From the NCBI GenBank assembly GCA_003144275.1, contig NJBF01000001.1, positions 30,001-62,000 on the forward strand: a DNA stretch of 32,000 nucleotides, read 5' to 3'. Position 1 is the stretch's first letter. Each line of letters starts with the position of its first letter. Both the position numbers and the translations under genes were made by a program. The notes below the pieces were generated by a model, which worked only from the letters and a program-made list of their open reading frames with translations, was not told where the DNA came from and searched no databases. This DNA comes from Candidatus Heimdallarchaeota archaeon B3_Heim (GTDB taxonomy: Archaea; Asgardarchaeota; Heimdallarchaeia; Hodarchaeales; Hodarchaeaceae). Of this stretch, positions 8,915-17,611 are shown in pieces.

Positions 8915-9703
8915 ATGAAGATTGAATTTATTGGAATACAAACGAAAATCATTACTACAAATGATAGAGATATTGTCCAGTTTGTTAGAAACGCACTGAG
9001 GGAAAATGAATGTGAACTTCAGGATAATGATTTTGTAATTATAGCTAGTAAAATTATTTCAACAGCAGAAGGGTGTCAATACAAAATTTCTGATATTAAG
9101 GACATTAGACAAGAAACTTATGAACTAGCACAAAAATCTCGACTCGACCCCCGATTTGTGGAACTAGTTTTTCGTGAATCAGATGAAATAATTGGTGCAG
9201 TACCAGGTGCAGTGCTTGCATTAAAAAATGGTATTCTTCAAGCAAATGCAGGGGTTGATCAGAGTAATTCGGGTGGTAAGGAATATTACATAACTTTACC
9301 TAGAGATCCTGCTGAAACTGCTAATAAAATTCATTTACAACTTGAAATCGAGTTGTCTGTCTCAATTGGAGTTATCATCGCTGATTCGAAGACCCATCCT
9401 TTACGTAGAGGTACATCTGGTTTTGCCCTAGGTGTCGCAGGATTTTCACCTATAATTGATGACCGAGGAACAATAGACCTTTTCAATCGAAAAATGAACA
9501 TAACTACAAGAGCTTTGGCTGATAACCTTGTTTGTGGAGCAGAAATATTAATGGGGGAATCAAATGAGCAGATCCCAATAGTTATCGCAAGAGGATATGA
9601 AAAGATGCCAGTACAAACAATAATAGATGTTTATGAGAATAATGAACAGATGAAAATGGATCCTGTTCAATGTATCTATATGGGCCCGCTCTGGAAGAAA
9701 TAA
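8915..9703 (+). CDS. cofE: Coenzyme F420-0:L-glutamate ligase family (CofE/FolC2-like)
   Basis: IASKIISTAEG, ANAGVDQSN, IIADSKTHPLRRG, DLFNRKMNIT, LMGESNEQIP. Confidence 0.9.
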   Translation: MKIEFIGIQTKIITTNDRDIVQFVRNALRENECELQDNDFVIIASKIISTAEGCQYKISDIKDIRQETYELAQKSRLDPRFVELVFRESDEIIGAVPGAVLALKNGILQANAGVDQSNSGGKEYYITLPRDPAETANKIHLQLEIELSVSIGVIIADSKTHPLRRGTSGFALGVAGFSPIIDDRGTIDLFNRKMNITTRALADNLVCGAEILMGESNEQIPIVIARGYEKMPVQTIIDVYENNEQMKMDPVQCIYMGPLWKK

Positions 9704-9710
9704 TTATTGA

Positions 9711-10592
9711 ATGGGATTAGAAATGCAAATAGTTGGTGAAATTGGAGGTATCTGTTTTGGAGATGGATATAAGACAATAGTCATGGGGGTCATGAATCTT
9801 TCACCTTCTTCTTTTTACAAAGGAAGTATTAAAAAAACTCCAAACGACATTCAGGAGAAAATTCTTGAGTTTGAAAACGAAGGGGTTGATATAATTGATG
9901 TGGGAGCAATTTCTAGTGCGCCCTCATTTATCTATAATTCTGTTGAGGATGAATCGGAATCTGTGGAATTAGAAAGATTAAAGGTATTTTTTGATGTAAT
10001 AGATGAAATAGGTTGCAATATTCCCATTTCTGTTGATACTCAATCCCATAAAACAGCCAAATTTGTGTTAAAATCCGGTGCATCCATGATTAATGATATT
10101 TCAGGTTTAAAATCCGATTCAATGATGGCAGATACAGTTTCTGATTATAACGCTTCCTTATCTGTAATGGCTTGCCAATTTCAACCAGGAGATGTATTTA
10201 AAATCCCTGATATAATAAATGAGTTGGAAAAAAGCAAAGAATTAGCAGTAAACGCTGGTATTTCACGAAAAAAGATAATAATAGATCCTGGATTAGGAGC
10301 TTGGGTACCAGAAAGAAATACAAAAAATGATTATATGATAATTAAACATTTAGAGAAAATGAGAGTTATAGACCAGCCTATATTGGTCGGTATTTCGCGA
10401 AAATCGTTTATTGGGGCTGTAATAGGGAAAACTTCCGAAGAACGATTGTGGGGATCCTTAAGTGCTACCTCCATTGCTATTTCAAATGGAGCTCACATTG
10501 TTCGAACACATGATGTTAGAGAAACCAAAGATGCATGTTTAGTAGCTGATTACCTAAAATTCCTAGATGAAAAAGAAACTTCTTATAAATGA
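9711..10592 (+). CDS. folP: Dihydropteroate synthase
   Basis: MGVMNLSPSSFY, IIDVGAIS, ISVDT, MINDISG, IIDPGLG, GISRKSFIG, IVRTHDV. Confidence 0.93.
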   Translation: MGLEMQIVGEIGGICFGDGYKTIVMGVMNLSPSSFYKGSIKKTPNDIQEKILEFENEGVDIIDVGAISSAPSFIYNSVEDESESVELERLKVFFDVIDEIGCNIPISVDTQSHKTAKFVLKSGASMINDISGLKSDSMMADTVSDYNASLSVMACQFQPGDVFKIPDIINELEKSKELAVNAGISRKKIIIDPGLGAWVPERNTKNDYMIIKHLEKMRVIDQPILVGISRKSFIGAVIGKTSEERLWGSLSATSIAISNGAHIVRTHDVRETKDACLVADYLKFLDEKETSYK

Positions 10593-10647
10593 TTCAGAGA
10601 TTGAATATATGATACATAATCTTAAAACTTCAACGTAGGTTTACACT

Positions 10648-11253
10648 TTGACCAATCTAGATGAATTCTTTGGGGATAATCAATCCCAAAATGTTGATGC
10701 GCTAATCGCAGTAACCAAAAAATTCTTTGTGTTTGTTTCACAATTGGCAGAAATTGTCGATGATCTGGAAAGAAAGTATGCTGAACTGGGTAGTAGAATT
10801 AGTCAGATTTCCCAACAACCTTCGGCTCCACCTCAGCTTTCTGCTCCAGGATTAACCCCTTCACCCCCTGTTTCTCAACCAATTGCTCCATCAGTTACTC
10901 CCTCCCCACCAACCGCGCCTCCACCAAGCTTACCTACTCCACCAGCGTTTCCAACTCCTCCATCGCCAGTACAAGCTCAACCATCAGAAGTACCTACACC
11001 TATTTCCGCAAACGCTCCCCCACAACCTGCTACACCCATGTCATCACCATCTAGTCTTCCACCCTTACCTGGACAATCACCTGGCCCTCCATCACCTGGT
11101 TTAGCCCCACCCGCTGTAGGTGGACAAATGGGAGGCGCACGGCCGCCTGCACCTCAGGCTCACCCATCCCCAATGAGTTTGAAAGCTCAAATGAATATGG
11201 AATTAAAGGAAGCCTTTTCTCGAATACGTAAGGGGTGGGATGAAGAGAAATAG
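10648..11253 (+). CDS. Coiled-coil / proline-rich protein with C-terminal amphipathic helix and WDEE tail
   Basis: 201 aa, TTG start; helical N-terminus, P/S/A-rich about aa 57-175, C-terminus SLKAQMNMELKEAFSRIRKGWDEEK. Confidence 0.8.
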   Translation: MTNLDEFFGDNQSQNVDALIAVTKKFFVFVSQLAEIVDDLERKYAELGSRISQISQQPSAPPQLSAPGLTPSPPVSQPIAPSVTPSPPTAPPPSLPTPPAFPTPPSPVQAQPSEVPTPISANAPPQPATPMSSPSSLPPLPGQSPGPPSPGLAPPAVGGQMGGARPPAPQAHPSPMSLKAQMNMELKEAFSRIRKGWDEEK

Positions 11254-11269
11254 ACAATAATGTTTGTTA

Positions 11270-12220
11270 TTACGTTCGTACACCATACAGCAAATTTGCT
11301 AACTCTCTTAGGTGTACTATCCCTCTTATTTCATATTCAAAAGAAGGAATTTCCTGTAAATCGAATTCATCATATAAATCTTTAATTTTGCCTAAATTTT
11401 TGAGCTGATCAGTATATCTATTCATGCAGTAAGTACAGTCAGGATTATCAGGTTGAAGTTGGTTAATGTATATTCGTTTAATAGGAAAAGCAACCTCAAA
11501 TAATGTACGAATTAATCTTTCAGTTTCCCAGATTGCCATGACGGTAGGAATTGTAACTGCGACAAACTCTGTCTCTTCATTGTTGCTAAGATGAGTTCTC
11601 GCAATCTCAACCTGATCTCTCAATTCCTCTAATTTATCAAAAGCATCCTGTTCATCAAGATCTGTTCCACCACCAATAAGAGATTTAAATCCACTCATCA
11701 GTCCCCCAATACGACGGCGCATTTTTATCAATCGAAATAACCAATTTTGGGTCAATTCTGGTAATTGTAGAAGTTTTAATGTGTGTCCAGTTGGCGCGGT
11801 ATCGAAAACAACAATATCATACTCGGGGTTCTGAATAAATTCTAACAACTGGATAAATGCGACTGTTTCGTCAGTACCTGGAGGGGAGAGAGAATTAGCA
11901 TCTCCATCTCCTAATAATTCGTTGAAAGCGCCTGTTGGATCTTGCTGGCTTATCATTTCTGAATATGTACTCATTGCCTTATCAGTACTCAGTTCAATCG
12001 CCCATAAATTATCAACATTATTTACCTTTACATAATCGTCTCCACCTATCTGTTGATCTAAACTATCAGATACAGAATGAGCTGGGTCAGTTGAAACTAA
12101 TAATGTATTGTGACCTAAATCTGCAGCTCGGATAGCTGTTGCTGCGGCCATTGTGGTCTTTCCAACACCCCCTTTCCCTCCAAAAAATAAAAAATGTTTG
12201 CTAAATATTGAATTTGACAT
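11270..12220 (-). CDS. arsA: Get3/TRC40/ArsA family ATPase (single-domain, Get3-like)
   Basis: GGKGGVGKTT, STDPAHS, PPGTDE, FDTAPTGHT, Met/Gly-rich helical insert, C-terminal CTYC (CxxC). Confidence 0.93.
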   Translation of the reverse strand: MSNSIFSKHFLFFGGKGGVGKTTMAAATAIRAADLGHNTLLVSTDPAHSVSDSLDQQIGGDDYVKVNNVDNLWAIELSTDKAMSTYSEMISQQDPTGAFNELLGDGDANSLSPPGTDETVAFIQLLEFIQNPEYDIVVFDTAPTGHTLKLLQLPELTQNWLFRLIKMRRRIGGLMSGFKSLIGGGTDLDEQDAFDKLEELRDQVEIARTHLSNNEETEFVAVTIPTVMAIWETERLIRTLFEVAFPIKRIYINQLQPDNPDCTYCMNRYTDQLKNLGKIKDLYDEFDLQEIPSFEYEIRGIVHLRELANLLYGVRT

Positions 12221-12468
12221 AAAAGGGGAGGTTAGGGAACTAAAACAAGAATCTTTTGTTGAGAACTAATTTCGAATGAGTCCTCTAGAGCTTGATCTCA
12301 GACAGGGTTTTACATCAGGGGGTGTTTCTTTTGTCTTTCAAAATGAATTTATCTTTTCTGATCGGTCATGTGAACACAAATGACAACATTTGATATCATT
12401 TGTAATAACCCTAAGATTTAACAAGACTTTCAAATTGGGAATAATTATACCTATTTTAGGCGATATTT

Positions 12469-13074
12469 ATGTGGGCTGTACCTAAAAGGTCTCAACTTGC
12501 TAGAAAGATAATTATAAGCTTTGTTTTTGCTATCCTCTGCTTTAATTTTTTATCAGTGCAGGTTCAGGCATCTCCATCAAAAACAATAAATGTTTCTAAC
12601 ACATATCCTAGCATATTTGTTACCAAAGTTGTTGATCTTACAGAAGTTACATTAAATGATTCATTTGTTGTAACGATTACGATTAGGAATATAGGTAATA
12701 GCACAGCATATAATGTTACCTTTATTGATACTTTAAACGCTCCTTGGGTTTTTGACGTGGTTGGTTTGACAAAAATTTCTTACAGCTGGATTGAACCTAA
12801 TCAAACACGTATATTTAGTTATATAGTTACTGCCCTATCCTTAGGAGAGTTTCAACTTCATTCTGCACGAGTTTACTACCGTATATCCGATCTAGCAGAT
12901 ACTGAGTTCCTAGCTTTTAGTAATTCATTGGATATTGCTGTAACTAAGGCAGAAGAAGATCTTTCGTTGGCAGACCTCAATTCTGCTATAACCTTCTTAC
13001 TCATTCTATTTATTCTCAACACAATTCTTACATTACGATTTGTAGCACCGAAGTTAAATCGAAAGAAACCTTGA
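12469..13074 (+). CDS. Single-pass Ig-fold membrane protein, TRAP-beta (SSR2)/DUF11/BatD-like
   Basis: Signal peptide ending VQA; IFVTK...TITIRNIGNSTAYNVTFID...IEPNQTRIFSYIV...GEFQLHSARVYY; C-terminal TM helix and basic tail. Confidence 0.7.
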   Translation: MWAVPKRSQLARKIIISFVFAILCFNFLSVQVQASPSKTINVSNTYPSIFVTKVVDLTEVTLNDSFVVTITIRNIGNSTAYNVTFIDTLNAPWVFDVVGLTKISYSWIEPNQTRIFSYIVTALSLGEFQLHSARVYYRISDLADTEFLAFSNSLDIAVTKAEEDLSLADLNSAITFLLILFILNTILTLRFVAPKLNRKKP

Positions 13075-13110
13075 TTTTACTTTTAGGGTTGCTAAATCGG
13101 AGAAAGAAAA

Positions 13111-13659
13111 ATGGATACTCCCGTCCCAGCTCTATTAGTGGATAAGCATGTTATTGTTTGGAATCATGAGCTTGGAAGTTATATCTATCAATTAGGTTAT
13201 TTTGGATCACCAGTTGGGATAAGAAAACCAAAATCTCCGAGATTTGAACGGCCTCTTGAACTAACTTTACTGGAAGCTGCGTTTCTTTTAAAAAAAAATA
13301 TAATTCGAATCTCCGAGAATGATCAAGAGATCTCTCATGATCAGTTCCTAACGATCTGTAAAGAACGTTTTGCTAAATTTGAGGATTTATACGCGGTTTA
13401 TAAGAATCTGCGGGACAAGAGATACATCGTACGCCCTGGACTTAAATTTGGAACTGATTTTTCCGTATACCGCAGGGGTCCAGGAATTGATCATGCGCCA
13501 TTTCTCGTCTCTATCTTTCCAAAAGAATCGACTATCGAACCTATAGATTTAGTCAGAGCTGGAAGATTAGCCACGTCAGTTCGCAAACGCTATGTTATAG
13601 CCACCGTCTTATCAGATCAACAAATTAGATATTATGTATTTCAGTGGAATAGACCATAA
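13111..13659 (+). CDS. endA: tRNA-intron lyase (splicing endonuclease), catalytic subunit
   Basis: PLELTLLEAAFL, VYKNLRDKRYIVRPGLKFGTDFSVY, DHAPFLV, ATSVRK; Tyr/His/Lys triad present. Confidence 0.95.
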   Translation: MDTPVPALLVDKHVIVWNHELGSYIYQLGYFGSPVGIRKPKSPRFERPLELTLLEAAFLLKKNIIRISENDQEISHDQFLTICKERFAKFEDLYAVYKNLRDKRYIVRPGLKFGTDFSVYRRGPGIDHAPFLVSIFPKESTIEPIDLVRAGRLATSVRKRYVIATVLSDQQIRYYVFQWNRP

Positions 13660-13668
13660 ACCAGCAAA

Positions 13669-14358
13669 TTACTCAAACGCGATTGAATAAATGCCGACTT
13701 GAGGTTCAAAGAATTCACCAGACTCCAATAATTCTGTAATTGCATCATAAATTTGCGCCTCATCAATATTTGGTAGTTTTACAACAATGTTGTCCATTGT
13801 AACACCATTTCCTTGGTCTAATTGTTTGACAAGCGTTTTTAGTTTATTTTTTAAATCTTCTAGTGATGCAACACCAAGATCAATTCCTTCAACGACCGCA
13901 GATTTTACTTTGATCTCTGTATCAATGTGTTGGCGCTGTTGAACAATTTTTAATTTGTGATATGTAAACCAATTATCATCCTTGATATTTTCTACAATAT
14001 CAGGAGTAATAAAAACATCTACTGTATCGTCTCGTTCAGAAATTTGAATTTGCCCAAGTATTTCGACTTTATCCCACTGAGAAATAGATTCGATACTACC
14101 ATCCCAAGCTTTTACCATTGTAGCTCCACTCCCGTCTTCAGTTTTTAATCCAACATAATTATTTTCTCCCTCGTATTTCTCAGTTACAACACCAACTATC
14201 CATATCCGGAACAGAGTTGATCCATCAGCAGTGATTAAACGCCAACGTTCTTCACTATCCTTTGTAACTTCTGCACTATTTATGTTCTGAATTTTGACTC
14301 GTTTATAGGGAGATCGTCTTTTCATCTGTATTCTCTCATATATTCTGAGTTTATTCAA
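13669..14358 (-). CDS. RPA32/RPA2-like OB-fold + winged helix single-stranded DNA binding subunit
   Basis: Likely start ATG at 14325 (MKRRSPYKRVKI); RIWIVGVV...EDGSG...VEILGQI OB fold; C-terminal winged helix (IYDAITELLESGEFFEP). Confidence 0.85.
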   Translation of the reverse strand: MNKLRIYERIQMKRRSPYKRVKIQNINSAEVTKDSEERWRLITADGSTLFRIWIVGVVTEKYEGENNYVGLKTEDGSGATMVKAWDGSIESISQWDKVEILGQIQISERDDTVDVFITPDIVENIKDDNWFTYHKLKIVQQRQHIDTEIKVKSAVVEGIDLGVASLEDLKNKLKTLVKQLDQGNGVTMDNIVVKLPNIDEAQIYDAITELLESGEFFEPQVGIYSIAFE

Positions 14359-14836
14359 CCCAAGACTTGTTAATTAGATCAAATGATACGTAGTCTTCAT
14401 TTTCAAATAGTACACCTAACTCATATAGTGCCCTTTCAGGTTTATCTGACGAATGAACAATATTTTTTGTTAAATCAATACCCAAATCACCACGGATAGT
14501 TCCAGGTTCAGCTTCAGGTGAGTTAGTCGCTCCCGCTAATTTTCTTACGATCTTAACGCAATTTTTTCCTTGAATTGAGATAGTAACTAAAGGACCTGAA
14601 AGAATAAAAGATTTCAGTAGTGGATAAAAACCTTTTTCAACATGAATGTCATATAATTTATCTACATCATCCTCTGTCAATTTAATCATTTTTAAAGCAT
14701 TTATCTTTAAACCCTTTCTTTCAATGCGGGAAATAATTTCTCCTATTAAACCTCTCTGCACTGCGTCTGGTTTAATTACCAATAATGTATTTTCTGTCAT
14801 TTTTTCACACGATTCCTCAGTCACTTCGAGATTCAT
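14351..14836 (-). CDS. ndk: Nucleoside diphosphate kinase
   Basis: TLLVIKPDAVQRGLIGEIISR, SGPLV, GATN, PGTIRGD, NIVHSSD; likely start ATG at 14800. Confidence 0.97.
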   Translation of the reverse strand: MNLEVTEESCEKMTENTLLVIKPDAVQRGLIGEIISRIERKGLKINALKMIKLTEDDVDKLYDIHVEKGFYPLLKSFILSGPLVTISIQGKNCVKIVRKLAGATNSPEAEPGTIRGDLGIDLTKNIVHSSDKPERALYELGVLFENEDYVSFDLINKSWVE

Positions 14837-15042
14837 TTGAAATCTTATTGAATGGGAAGAAATGATACTGGTCTTATGAAGATACTGTAAAGGAGAAGAT
14901 GTTATCTTTTTACTGGTTATTGTCTTAAATCAAATTAAAGGTCGAACTAATTAAATAGGGTACTTGTTTTCAACTATAATAACAAATTGGCTTTTTTTGA
15001 TAAATTAAATCACATATCACTTCTCGATTTAAAATCTAGAAA

Positions 15043-15102
15043 AATAATAGTATCACGTAAAAAATGGAAATCAATAATAATATCACGTAAAAAATGGAAA
15101 TC
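15043..15102 (+). repeat. Two tandem copies of a 30-bp unit
   Basis: AATAATAGTATCACGTAAAAAATGGAAATC then AATAATAATATCACGTAAAAAATGGAAATC, one mismatch, no spacer. Confidence 0.9.
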
Positions 15103-15178
15103 ACTTCGATAAGACTTAATTCTCAATACAGGTCAAAGGAATTTCTAATATTTGAATTTTCGTTATTTAAAATGAAAG

Positions 15179-17611
15179 GTGGAAATAATGTTCACAACTT
15201 TTTTGGATTTAGAGCTCATTGAACAGCTTACCCTACTTGTCGTAATTGGTGTTGCCATTATTGCGTTTATCTACTCATGGTGGCTACGTAAAGATGTTCT
15301 CAGCCATGATAAAGGGTCTGAAGAAATGCAACAGGTATGGGAAGCTATCAATGAAGGAGCAAATGCTTATCTGAAACGACAACTCAAAACAATTCTTCCT
15401 ATAGTGCTAATTCTTACGATAGCGCTGTTTTTCAGTGTGTACCTAGTTGAACCCACTGAAGCAGCGAGAGATGAATTTGTTGGACTCGATCCAGTACTAA
15501 TGGTTGCAATAGGACGTACTATAGCATTCATAATGGGAGCATCGTTCTCAATGATGGTAGGTCAATTTGGTATGCGTATTGCAGTTCAAGGAAATCTAAG
15601 AGTAGCTGCTACAGCATCACAGACTACCGATGAATATGGTAACCCAATAGATGTAGGACAGAGATATAGTAAAGCTCTTTCTGTTGCTTATCATGCTGGA
15701 ACTGTTACAGGGATGCTAACCGATGGTTTTGGACTATTGGGTGGTACTCTCATATTTATTATCTTTGGACAGGCAGCACCTGATGCGTTACTTGGTTTTG
15801 GGTTCGGTGGAACCATTCTAGCTCTATTCATGAGAGTTGGAGGAGGTATTTACACTAAAGCTGCTGATGTAGGAGCAGATCTCGTTGGCAAGGTCGAAAA
15901 AGATATTCCAGAAGATGATCCTCGAAATGCTGGGGTCATTGCTGATTTAGTTGGAGATAATGTAGGCGACTGCGCTGGTATGGCTGCAGATATTTTTGAG
16001 TCGTACGAAGTAACCATTGTTTCTTCCTTAATATTAGGACTAGTGCTTTTTCATATAGATGGACGAATCGTTTGGATTATGTTTCCATTAATAGTCCGAG
16101 CTGTGGGCGTAATCAGTTCGATTGTAGGTACTTATGCAGTCGCATTATGGAAAACACCTGATGCAGAAAAAGCTATGTTCCAATCCTATGAGATTTCTAG
16201 CGCTATCACGATTATTACTTCGATGTTCATAGCTACATTTTATGCTGGTGACTGGAGACTCGGCTTCCTAATAGCTGTAGGAGTCTTACTTGCAGTCTCT
16301 TTCAATCCAATTACAGCTCGTTTCACTGCAAAAGCTGGAGGACCAGTTGTAGAGGTATTTGAATCAACTGAAGGAGGGCCAGCAACTACTATTCTAAGCG
16401 GTTTAGCATTAGGTTATGAAAGCAGTGTATGGGCGGTTGTTGCTATCTCTATATCTTTCATTTTTGCGATCATAACTTATGCGATTTTCCCTGATAATAC
16501 AGGATTGCCCCTTATTGATGGATTATCTAATAATCTGACTGTTTTGCCAGAACATGTAGGGGAAGCTATTCTTTACGGAATTGCATTAATAGGCATTGGT
16601 ATGCTCTCTCATACAGGGAATAACGTTGCAATGGATTCCTTTGGACCAATTAGCGACAATGCTCAAGGTATCGCTGAAATGACTGGTATGGACGAAGAAT
16701 CGAGACATGTCTTAGAAGAATTAGATGCAGTTGGAAATACTACGAAAGCGATTACAAAAGGTGTCGCAATCGCGTCTGCAGTTATTGCTTCGGTAAGCCT
16801 TTTTGCATCTTTTGTAGTAGACGTTGGACGCGTTGCCACTAATTTGGGAATTCCCAGTCCGCTCGCAAATGGATTACGTATCAACATACCCGCAGTATTT
16901 GTAGGTCTTCTTATTGGAGCTGCACTTCCATGGCTTTTTTCAGCTTTCAATATCAGAGCCGTAAATCGGGCAGCTGGTCAAACAATCCGAGAAGTTCGTC
17001 GACAATTTAAAATTCCAGGGATTATGGAAGGTACTAAGAAACCTAATTATGGAAAAGTTGTGAATATTGTAACGGCGGCAGCTCAAAAGGAACTGATCAG
17101 CTTAACAATAATTGCAGTCAGTGTACCTATTTTCATGGCAATATTCTTTTCAATCGCCCTTGGACAAGTAAACAATCCTGGTTTAATCGGGTCTGGTGTT
17201 GAAGTACTAGGTGGTTTTCAAGCAGGAATAATTGTTAGTGGACAATTATTAGCAGTTTACATGTCTAATGCTGGTGGAGCATGGGATAACGCCAAGAAAG
17301 CTATCGAAGACGAGCCTAGAGACTTAGAAAAGAATACAGGTAAGGGATCAGAACGTCACAAGGCTGGTGTCGTTGGAGACACAGTCGGTGACCCATTGAA
17401 AGATACAGCTGGTCCAGCGTTGAATCCTATGATAAAAGTAATTAACCTGATTAGTCTTATTATTGCTCCGCTGTTAGTTCAATCTTCTCAGGATTCTACA
17501 CTACAGATGATTTTAGCAGCTGTCGGTGCATTACTTTTCGTGGCTTTTGTCTGGGCTTATTTGAAAAGTTCCCGAAAATCGGCAATAGTTTTTGACACTG
17601 AAGATGAATAA
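15179..17611 (+). CDS. hppA: Membrane-bound H+-translocating pyrophosphatase, K+-independent type
   Basis: GGGIYTKAADVGADLVGKVE, EDDPRN, DNVGD, DSFGPISDNA, DAVGNTTKA, GGAWDNAKK, GDTVGDPLKDTAGP; likely start ATG at 15188. Confidence 0.96.
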   Translation: MEIMFTTFLDLELIEQLTLLVVIGVAIIAFIYSWWLRKDVLSHDKGSEEMQQVWEAINEGANAYLKRQLKTILPIVLILTIALFFSVYLVEPTEAARDEFVGLDPVLMVAIGRTIAFIMGASFSMMVGQFGMRIAVQGNLRVAATASQTTDEYGNPIDVGQRYSKALSVAYHAGTVTGMLTDGFGLLGGTLIFIIFGQAAPDALLGFGFGGTILALFMRVGGGIYTKAADVGADLVGKVEKDIPEDDPRNAGVIADLVGDNVGDCAGMAADIFESYEVTIVSSLILGLVLFHIDGRIVWIMFPLIVRAVGVISSIVGTYAVALWKTPDAEKAMFQSYEISSAITIITSMFIATFYAGDWRLGFLIAVGVLLAVSFNPITARFTAKAGGPVVEVFESTEGGPATTILSGLALGYESSVWAVVAISISFIFAIITYAIFPDNTGLPLIDGLSNNLTVLPEHVGEAILYGIALIGIGMLSHTGNNVAMDSFGPISDNAQGIAEMTGMDEESRHVLEELDAVGNTTKAITKGVAIASAVIASVSLFASFVVDVGRVATNLGIPSPLANGLRINIPAVFVGLLIGAALPWLFSAFNIRAVNRAAGQTIREVRRQFKIPGIMEGTKKPNYGKVVNIVTAAAQKELISLTIIAVSVPIFMAIFFSIALGQVNNPGLIGSGVEVLGGFQAGIIVSGQLLAVYMSNAGGAWDNAKKAIEDEPRDLEKNTGKGSERHKAGVVGDTVGDPLKDTAGPALNPMIKVINLISLIIAPLLVQSSQDSTLQMILAAVGALLFVAFVWAYLKSSRKSAIVFDTEDE

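Follow-up and report, generated by a model that had tools for sequence, protein, structure and literature searches.

A gene for a protein resembling the beta subunit of the complex of translocon-associated proteins (TRAP-beta, SSR2) and a gene for the targeting ATPase Get3 lie side by side in the 32,000-nucleotide stretch of archaeal DNA analysed here (the window), which corresponds to positions 30001-62000 of contig C57 in a 3.95-Mb genome that is 94% complete. Close relatives of the window's proteins carry the label Candidatus Hodarchaeales. Both are ordinary, intact, membrane-protein-biogenesis genes, and together they form an evolutionarily conserved neighbour pair. Get3 is the immediate neighbour of the TRAP-beta gene in 68 of the 79 Asgard genomes in which the surroundings could be judged, and these genomes fall under nine family codes. 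In the window itself the two open reading frames (ORFs) are arranged head-to-head with a 248-bp spacer between their start codons, as an earlier note on this DNA had described from the sequence alone and as the ORF list bears out.

Conservation of the gene pair in Asgard archaea

A family profile was used to scan 400 genomes of the phylum, and the family was found in 205 of them; many of the weaker matches are long multi-domain proteins that are not TRAP-beta-like. The surroundings of the TRAP-beta-like gene were then retrieved from 86 genomes, with flanks long enough to judge in 79. The adjacency, whose restriction to this genome would by the earlier note have spoken against its reading, is widespread, but the orientation and spacing of the two genes differ from family to family. 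In the window's genus (f1) the genes are divergent in all 20 genomes, mostly with ~84-280 bp between them and in one case 869 bp; three gaps shorter than ~84 bp stem from over-extended ORF calls. The one genome of f2, a family of the same order, has a convergent pair with a gap of 271 bp, and convergent pairs separated by ~420-550 bp are found in five of the six genomes of f7, the remaining one being co-directional. Co-directional genes with TRAP-beta first are present in every genome of f4 (29 of 29, gap typically 46-115 bp), f5 (three of three, gap mostly short, up to 402 bp) and f6 (six of six, gap short). Families f29, f32 and f33, which lie outside the class, are represented by one genome each, all co-directional with gaps of 16-161 bp. 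The order TRAP-beta then Get3 prevails in most Heimdall-group families, with the convergent form in two families. TRAP-beta followed by Get3 after a gap of ~60 bp is the commonest arrangement and probably the older one, and the divergent form seen in the Hodarchaeum-like genus of the window is probably derived, one gene having been inverted.

When all ORFs around the TRAP-beta-like genes are clustered, no neighbour but Get3 recurs in more than a few families. The rest are housekeeping genes, family-specific in each case, and include EndA, DegV, a HAD hydrolase, a GNAT protein and a beta-eliminating lyase. Linkage persists between proteins whose identity has fallen to ~25% for TRAP-beta and ~40% for Get3, while the other neighbours turn over. 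When the locus is viewed from the Get3 side, a TRAP-beta neighbour is present in three of 80 Get3 loci, all three labelled Hodarchaeum/Heimdallarchaeota, and absent from the other 77; these loci were drawn with the Get3 alignment and are a sample across Bacteria and Archaea, not a census.

A tree of Get3 proteins places the window Get3 as sister to that of Candidatus Hodarchaeum mangrovi. The family groups are strongly supported (98 for f1 with f2, 100 for f4 and 100 for f7). Since the tree recovers the families, the pair has been inherited within lineages, and was not spread recently as a cassette. The backbone of the tree is unresolved and is compatible with one or more origins of the linkage.

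Identity of the two proteins

The 201-aa product of the plus-strand gene has the layout proposed in the earlier note, i.e., a signal peptide, an immunoglobulin (Ig)-like fold and a transmembrane helix (Table 1). The strongest hydrophobic window of the signal peptide begins at residue 14, and an alignment of the genus shows no variation at A34 and S35. Five N-x-S/T sequons are found in the Ig-like domain. The hydrophobicity of the transmembrane segment peaks at residues 173-176, and in the juxtamembrane and tail region R190 and P194 are invariant within the genus, with N197 and R198 nearly so. An AlphaFold2 (AF2) model built on an alignment of diverse families has a mean predicted local distance difference test score (pLDDT) of 89.4, and displays an N-terminal helix that corresponds to the signal peptide; residues 49-159 form a beta-sandwich, and residues 167-196 a second helix.

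Sequence and structure searches both rank TRAP-beta first. With the Pfam model TRAP_beta (PF05753, cut-off 22.4) the protein reaches 49 bits, compared with 30.3 bits for BatD (PF13584) and 26 bits for DUF11 (PF01345), each of which is also just over its own cut-off. A single-sequence HMMER search of the PDB places three TRAP-beta chains first, weakly (E 0.3-0.7). With a profile of 37 diverse relatives the TRAP-beta chains 8b6l_F, 8b5l_v and 8bf9_B are first, with E 5e-8, and the next match is a DUF11-like domain at 1.5e-4. The three stretches in which the earlier note had seen a likeness to human SSR2 are columns that HMMER aligns to chains 8bf9_B and 8b5l_v. The 37 relatives share the layout of signal peptide, Ig-like domain, transmembrane helix and cytosolic tail; PF05753 matches 35 of them, DUF11 21 and BatD 18. 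In a Foldseek search of the PDB with the model, the first five ranks are taken by TRAP-beta chains, each in a different ribosome-Sec61-TRAP structure (E 1e-10 to 6e-9, TM-score 0.67-0.70 on the target), and the next match has E 4e-6, a gap of four logs to generic Ig-like domains. VIA-align gives TRAP-beta Z scores of 16.3-17.1 over 146-156 residues and the next entry 11.7 over 103 residues, and it aligns the C-terminal helix with the transmembrane helix of TRAP-beta in 8rjc, 8btk and 8b5l. Thus the comparison with DUF11 and BatD for which the earlier note had called comes out for TRAP-beta in Pfam, the PDB profile search, Foldseek and VIA-align, and a generic domain is not the best match in any of them. 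Because the best score, a match that continues through the anchor helix, an unvarying architecture with one domain and orthology as a single-copy gene across Asgard archaea coincide, sequence and model together support the assignment of this protein as the Asgard orthologue of TRAP-beta, within the wider DUF11/BatD/CARDB domain superfamily.

Some family members depart from the layout in the window. The TRAP-beta-like proteins of f4 (L039:1300-2091, L046:4886-5620 and L058:4929-5690) have a Lys/Arg-rich cytosolic tail of ~40-60 residues, where that of the window has 8, and these tails resemble ribosome- or RNA-binding tails. In f7 (L079:4918-6453 and L062:3975-5459) the protein is a multi-Ig form of ~500 aa, in which a further Ig domain, BatD-like and N-terminal, comes ahead of the TRAP-beta-like domain and the anchor. 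A 172-aa member from a genome of ~0.9 Mb (L087:3141-3659, genome G284) is matched nearly equally by the BatD, TRAP_beta, DUF11 and TRAP_alpha models, at 27-35 bits, so that TRAP alpha, TRAP beta and DUF11 domains grade into one another at such distances.

The minus-strand gene encodes a 316-aa protein that scores 279 bits with PF02374 and 278 bits with TIGR00345 of NCBIfam, the model of the TRC40/GET3/ArsA subfamily (cut-off 135). Its closest solved single-domain relatives are the Get3 proteins of M. jannaschii (3ug6, E 2e-69) and M. thermautotrophicus (3zq6, E 2e-68); eukaryotic Get3/TRC40 proteins come after them in the PDB search, from E 2e-56 (S. pombe 2woo) to 5e-43. The P-loop and both switch motifs are invariant in an alignment of the Get3 proteins that are linked to TRAP-beta. 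The only two cysteines of the protein are those of the CTYC motif at residues 262-265, which by its sequence is the zinc-bridged dimer motif of Get3, and a CxxC is found in every full-length TRAP-beta-linked Get3 examined. Because none of the three nucleotide motifs (P-loop, switch I, switch II) is damaged and the only cysteines are those of the CxxC, the protein reads from its sequence as a canonical single-domain archaeal Get3. The earlier note had this right as to the single domain and the CxxC. Its description of the ATPase as divergent does not agree with the scores just given, and the Met-rich insert that it reported is not found: the groove insert (residues 148-185) is hydrophobic and contains 2 Met in 38 residues. 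The groove of Get3 proteins is hydrophobic and typically Met-rich, and it holds the helices of tail anchors.

The acidic stretch DLYDEF (residues 281-286) aligns with ELYEDF of S. pombe Get3 and with another eukaryotic Get3, whereas the two euryarchaeal structures have EKFGDK/EKFSDK in its place. The position is one that we take to be the Get1/Get2 binding site in yeast Get3.

Two more full-length ArsA/Get3-like genes, of 341 and 332 aa, are found in tandem elsewhere in the genome (C84:33899-35868; L005 1435-3479). Both lack the CxxC and have degenerate motifs, STDPQAS and FDMPPFGH in one and SLNPVHS and FDTAAVAN in the other, and they may be a candidate heterodimeric Get3-like pair. The window gene is thus the only canonical Get3 of the genome.

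Table 1. Features of the TRAP-beta/Get3 locus, in window coordinates
Feature	Position	Strand	Basis
Get3 (TRC40/ArsA-family) ATPase, 316 aa, single domain	11270..12220	-	ORF list, PF02374, TIGR00345, PDB search
DLYDEF, residues 281-286	11363..11380	-	HMMER alignments to 2woo, 7ru9, 3ug6, 3zq6
CxxC (CTYC), residues 262-265	11426..11437	-	aligns with CxxC of 3ug6, 3zq6, 2woo
Helical groove insert, residues 148-185	11666..11779	-	aligned to client-binding helices of M. jannaschii Get3 (3ug6)
Switch II DTAPTGHT, residues 140-147	11780..11803	-	invariant in linked-Get3 alignment
Switch I DPAHS, residues 45-49	12074-12088	-	invariant in linked-Get3 alignment
Deviant Walker A/P-loop GGKGGVGKT, residues 14-22	12155..12181	-	motif position; invariant in linked-Get3 alignment
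Spacer, 248 bp, between two divergent start codons	12221..12468	.	ORF list; presumed site of both promoters
TRAP-beta (SSR2)-like type I membrane protein, 201 aa	12469..13074	+	PF05753, PDB profile, AF2 model, Foldseek/VIA-align
Predicted signal peptide (residues 1-34) with basic n-region and hydrophobic core; VQA, followed by S	12469..12570	+	sequence, hydrophobicity
Ig-like beta-sandwich, DUF11/BatD/TRAP-beta class	12607..12948	+	AF2 strands at residues 49-159
Conserved motif NxGNxTAYNxT in Ig-like domain	12688-12720	+	genus and diverse-family alignments
C-terminal transmembrane helix, residues 167-193, and basic tail PKLNRKKP (194-201)	12967..13071	+	AF2 model, hydrophobicity
tRNA-intron endonuclease EndA, 36 bp 3' of the TRAP-beta-like gene	13111-13659	+	Pfam/NCBIfam
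229-aa ORF without Pfam/NCBIfam match	13669-14358	-	ORF list
Nucleoside-diphosphate-kinase-like gene	14351-14836	-	translation, by eye
Membrane pyrophosphatase-like gene, 810 aa	15179-17611	+	translation, by eye

The spacer is the putative holder of both promoters; no Rfam family is found in it or anywhere else in the window. On the side of the TRAP-beta-like gene, the EndA neighbour is kept across the genus and in one sister-family genome, not beyond. The 229-aa ORF adjoins EndA in 21 of 21 genus genomes by ORF clustering; judged by eye, it looks like an OB-fold with a winged-helix-like segment at the C-terminus, and it recalls proteins of the RPA32/Stn1 type. The kinase-like and pyrophosphatase-like genes that follow look like ordinary housekeeping genes around the locus.

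A shared process or an inherited gene order

In archaea, two genes that stay together so persistently usually take part in one process or one complex. Because this pair has long been retained amid complete turnover of the other neighbours, the reading favoured here, to which we give a probability of roughly 0.6, is that the two genes are kept together for the coordinated expression of two parts of one process, the building and supplying of the Sec translocon region of the membrane. The interpretation in the earlier note was similar, and it is supported as far as sequence analysis reaches; its observation of the pair itself is confirmed. Co-regulation of the two genes, or their joint function, is what we infer from that observation.

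From the identities of the genes and the conservation of the pair we also infer the steps by which such a process might run. The TRAP-beta-like protein would be exported by means of its signal peptide, which would then be cleaved. The Ig-like domain, probably glycosylated, would face the outside of the cell, and the single helix would keep the protein anchored, its short basic tail being cytosolic, in the manner of TRAP-beta at the translocon of the endoplasmic reticulum (ER). By homology with characterised Get3 proteins, the ATPase would be a cytosolic zinc-bridged homodimer that shields the C-terminal anchor of tail-anchored proteins and hands them to an insertase of the Oxa1 superfamily, for which a DUF106/EMC3_TMCO1 gene at C88:97055-97525 of the window genome is the candidate. 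Archaeal Get3 proteins bind tail-anchored clients, and small translocon subunits of the SecE/Sec-beta type are tail-anchored clients of Get3 in eukaryotes, which would provide a simple reason for the coupling of TRAP-beta and Get3. At the level of the genes, an ancestral two-gene unit of TRAP-beta then Get3 would have had one gene flipped in the genus, so that both would now be under a 248-bp control region. We know of no Get1/Get2-type receptor in archaea. The Pfam model CHD5/Get1 has no match in the genome, and as it is also silent in 14 of 14 control genomes, all of them prokaryotes, this result is uninformative.

Several observations weigh against a functional meaning of the pair. It is not universal: the 11 genomes without it all belong to families f23-f25, where one protein is labelled Njordarchaeales. 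There a gene for ribosomal protein eS26 directly follows the TRAP-beta-like gene (for example at L035:2086-2409 and in its relatives, f24 and f25), and Get3 is on another contig in three of the five genomes searched. Flipping a gene in place also leaves it beside its neighbour whether or not selection acts, and the variety of orientations is therefore no proof by itself. No credible match to TRAP-alpha (PF03896) or TRAP-gamma (PF07074) was obtained in a six-frame Pfam search of the genome, and a TRAP complex is here a candidate; two weak PF03896 matches on contig C98 were dropped as multi-pass membrane ORFs that are transporter-like rather than TRAP-alpha-like. In published work the alpha and gamma subunits were picked up with remote-homology methods only (PMC10307638). 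Model PF05753 itself cross-matches DUF11 repeat proteins, and it also has matches in Methanosarcina and on bacterial DUF11 proteins. Finally, RNA evidence comes from one metatranscriptome, in which 151-nt contigs with 97-98% identity fall on the TRAP-beta gene and on the proline-rich gene upstream; of the pair only the TRAP-beta gene is covered, and carry-over of DNA is possible. These contigs show neither strand nor transcript ends, and the lack of Get3 contigs proves nothing.

The flip without selection, the missing TRAP-alpha and TRAP-gamma matches and the cross-matches of PF05753 speak at the same time for an alternative, whereby the 201-aa protein is a small surface protein with a DUF11/BatD-type Ig domain and no role at the translocon, and the adjacency is an inherited gene order that means nothing. 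The names that NCBI gives to relatives, 'BatD family protein' or 'hypothetical protein', agree with it, as does the fact that the BatD and DUF11 models pass their cut-offs. In addition, the family profile picks up thousands of giant DUF11 repeat proteins by way of the NxGNxTAYN half of the domain; when 1.8 billion representatives were searched with a profile, the best 150 matches were giant DUF11 repeat proteins of this kind, with no eukaryotic sequences among them for a joint tree. This alternative is nevertheless considered unlikely. Three independent methods rank TRAP-beta first and place the generic domains clearly below it, and the match spans the Ig domain, the linker and the transmembrane helix of a protein that is single-copy and fixed in architecture across Asgard lineages. 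Moreover, Get3 is the sole neighbour retained while all others turn over, and work with remote-homology methods reports the alpha, beta and gamma subunits in Asgard archaea (PMC10307638, PMC11417166).

A closer association than coordinated expression should also be considered, in which the basic tail of the TRAP-beta-like protein docks the Get3 dimer beside the translocon and so has a tethering role like that of Get2/CAML. The two proteins would then be one physical module, an archaeal docking site for Get3 at the translocon formed by Sec, the oligosaccharyltransferase (OST) and TRAP, and it would have been later that eukaryotes divided this module between TRAP, as a co-translational accessory, and a GET receptor apart from it. 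The conserved gene pair is compatible with such contact. So are the conserved, basic juxtamembrane tail, with Lys/Arg-rich tails of up to ~50 residues in other families, and DLYDEF in the place where eukaryotic Get3 has ELYEDF, presumably the acidic patch that binds Get1/Get2. However, the acidic patch is missing from the linked Get3 of f4-f7, and a search for co-variation between the patch and the type of TRAP-beta tail revealed no pattern. Basic juxtamembrane tails are common, as expected from the positive-inside rule, and ribosomal RNA is an equally plausible partner for them; the expected receptor, the DUF106/EMC3-type insertase, is present in the genome. No fusion of TRAP-beta with Get3 was detected, only DUF11 multi-domain proteins being found among the longer proteins searched, which is weak evidence against fusion. 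Both the direct contact and the single module are regarded as distinctly doubtful.

That the ATPase is an ArsA-like subunit of a metalloid pump or a general redox-switched holdase, in which case the pairing would be silent on membrane insertion, is most improbable: many records do name the family 'arsenical pump-driving ATPase', and yeast Get3 has a second, chaperone role according to PMC3613179, but the protein has a single domain with no cysteines beyond the CxxC and so no metalloid-binding set of the ArsA type, the ArsA equivalog models of NCBIfam reach 142-155 bits against cut-offs of 650-800, the ORFs up to 2 kb to each side of the pair (9000-16000) include no arsenic-resistance genes, and the closest solved single-domain relatives are archaeal Get3 proteins, which we take to be binders of tail-anchored clients.

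The coordinated supply of the translocon region, the reading preferred here, bears on the origin of the ER translocon and of its targeting routes, as Hodarchaeales belong to those known archaea that are most closely related to eukaryotes. To our knowledge the textbook picture of eukaryotes holds no direct connection between TRAP and GET, and the pair offers a concrete, cheap and testable hypothesis of one. Both genes are hidden by their public names, 'BatD family protein' and 'arsenical pump-driving ATPase'. The window is of note for showing the pair in its derived and divergent form, as it occurs in a Hodarchaeum-like genus, together with the eukaryote-like DLYDEF patch on Get3.

Comparison with known systems

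Both gene families have already been described in Asgard archaea. Homologues of three TRAP subunits were found broadly across the group by remote-homology methods (Eme et al. 2023, PMC10307638), which agrees with the statement in the earlier note that TRAP homologues are known there. For Prometheoarchaeum MK-D1, TRAP alpha, beta and gamma have been listed and an assembly of Sec61, OST and TRAP has been modelled (Carilo et al. 2024, PMC11417166), and in the same work TRAP/translocon proteins of this archaeon target the ER in human cells. The protein in the window belongs to the same family and phylum as the homologues in these two papers, but comes from a different class (Hodarchaeales). A search for the term Get3 found no mention of it in either paper. 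A 2019 preprint (10.1101/810531) refers to Get3 in Heimdallarchaeota, as does a 2026 preprint on structural clustering. Full-text literature searches for Get3 in combination with Asgard archaea, TRAP and tail-anchored proteins brought up no paper on the TRAP-beta/Get3 gene pair, and the conserved pairing is a modest and apparently unpublished comparative-genomic lead.

Compared with archaeal Get3 (3UG6/3UG7, 3ZQ6) and eukaryotic Get3/TRC40 (2WOO, 2WOJ, 6SO5), the window ATPase has the same nucleotide motifs, CxxC, helical insert and single-domain length (E 2e-69 to 3e-44), but its insert is not Met-rich. It differs from the two euryarchaeal structures in having the eukaryote-like DLYDEF patch, and from the 77 sampled Get3 loci outside the Heimdall/Hod group in being encoded beside TRAP-beta.

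The TRAP-beta-like protein belongs to the same superfamily as the DUF11, BatD and CARDB domains (PF01345, PF13584, PF07705; 3IDU, 9FLP) and has the N-terminal half, with NxGNxTAYN, in common with them. However, proteins with those domains are usually large and multi-repeat, or are without a C-terminal anchor, whereas the window protein is single-domain and anchored. Those domains score lower on it (26-30 against 49 bits; Foldseek E 4e-5 against 1e-10) and leave the transmembrane helix uncovered. With eukaryotic TRAP-beta/SSR2 (8B5L chain v, 8B6L chain F, 8BTK, 8RJC) it shares the signal peptide, a non-cytosolic Ig-like sandwich, one transmembrane helix, a short tail and a length of ~185-200 aa, at just 15-19% identity. 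It differs from the eukaryotic protein in that TRAP-alpha and TRAP-gamma partners are without a Pfam match in the window genome, in its NxGNxTAYNxT motif of the DUF11 type, which contains two glycosylation sequons that are conserved, and in its predicted location, which is the cell membrane and not the ER.

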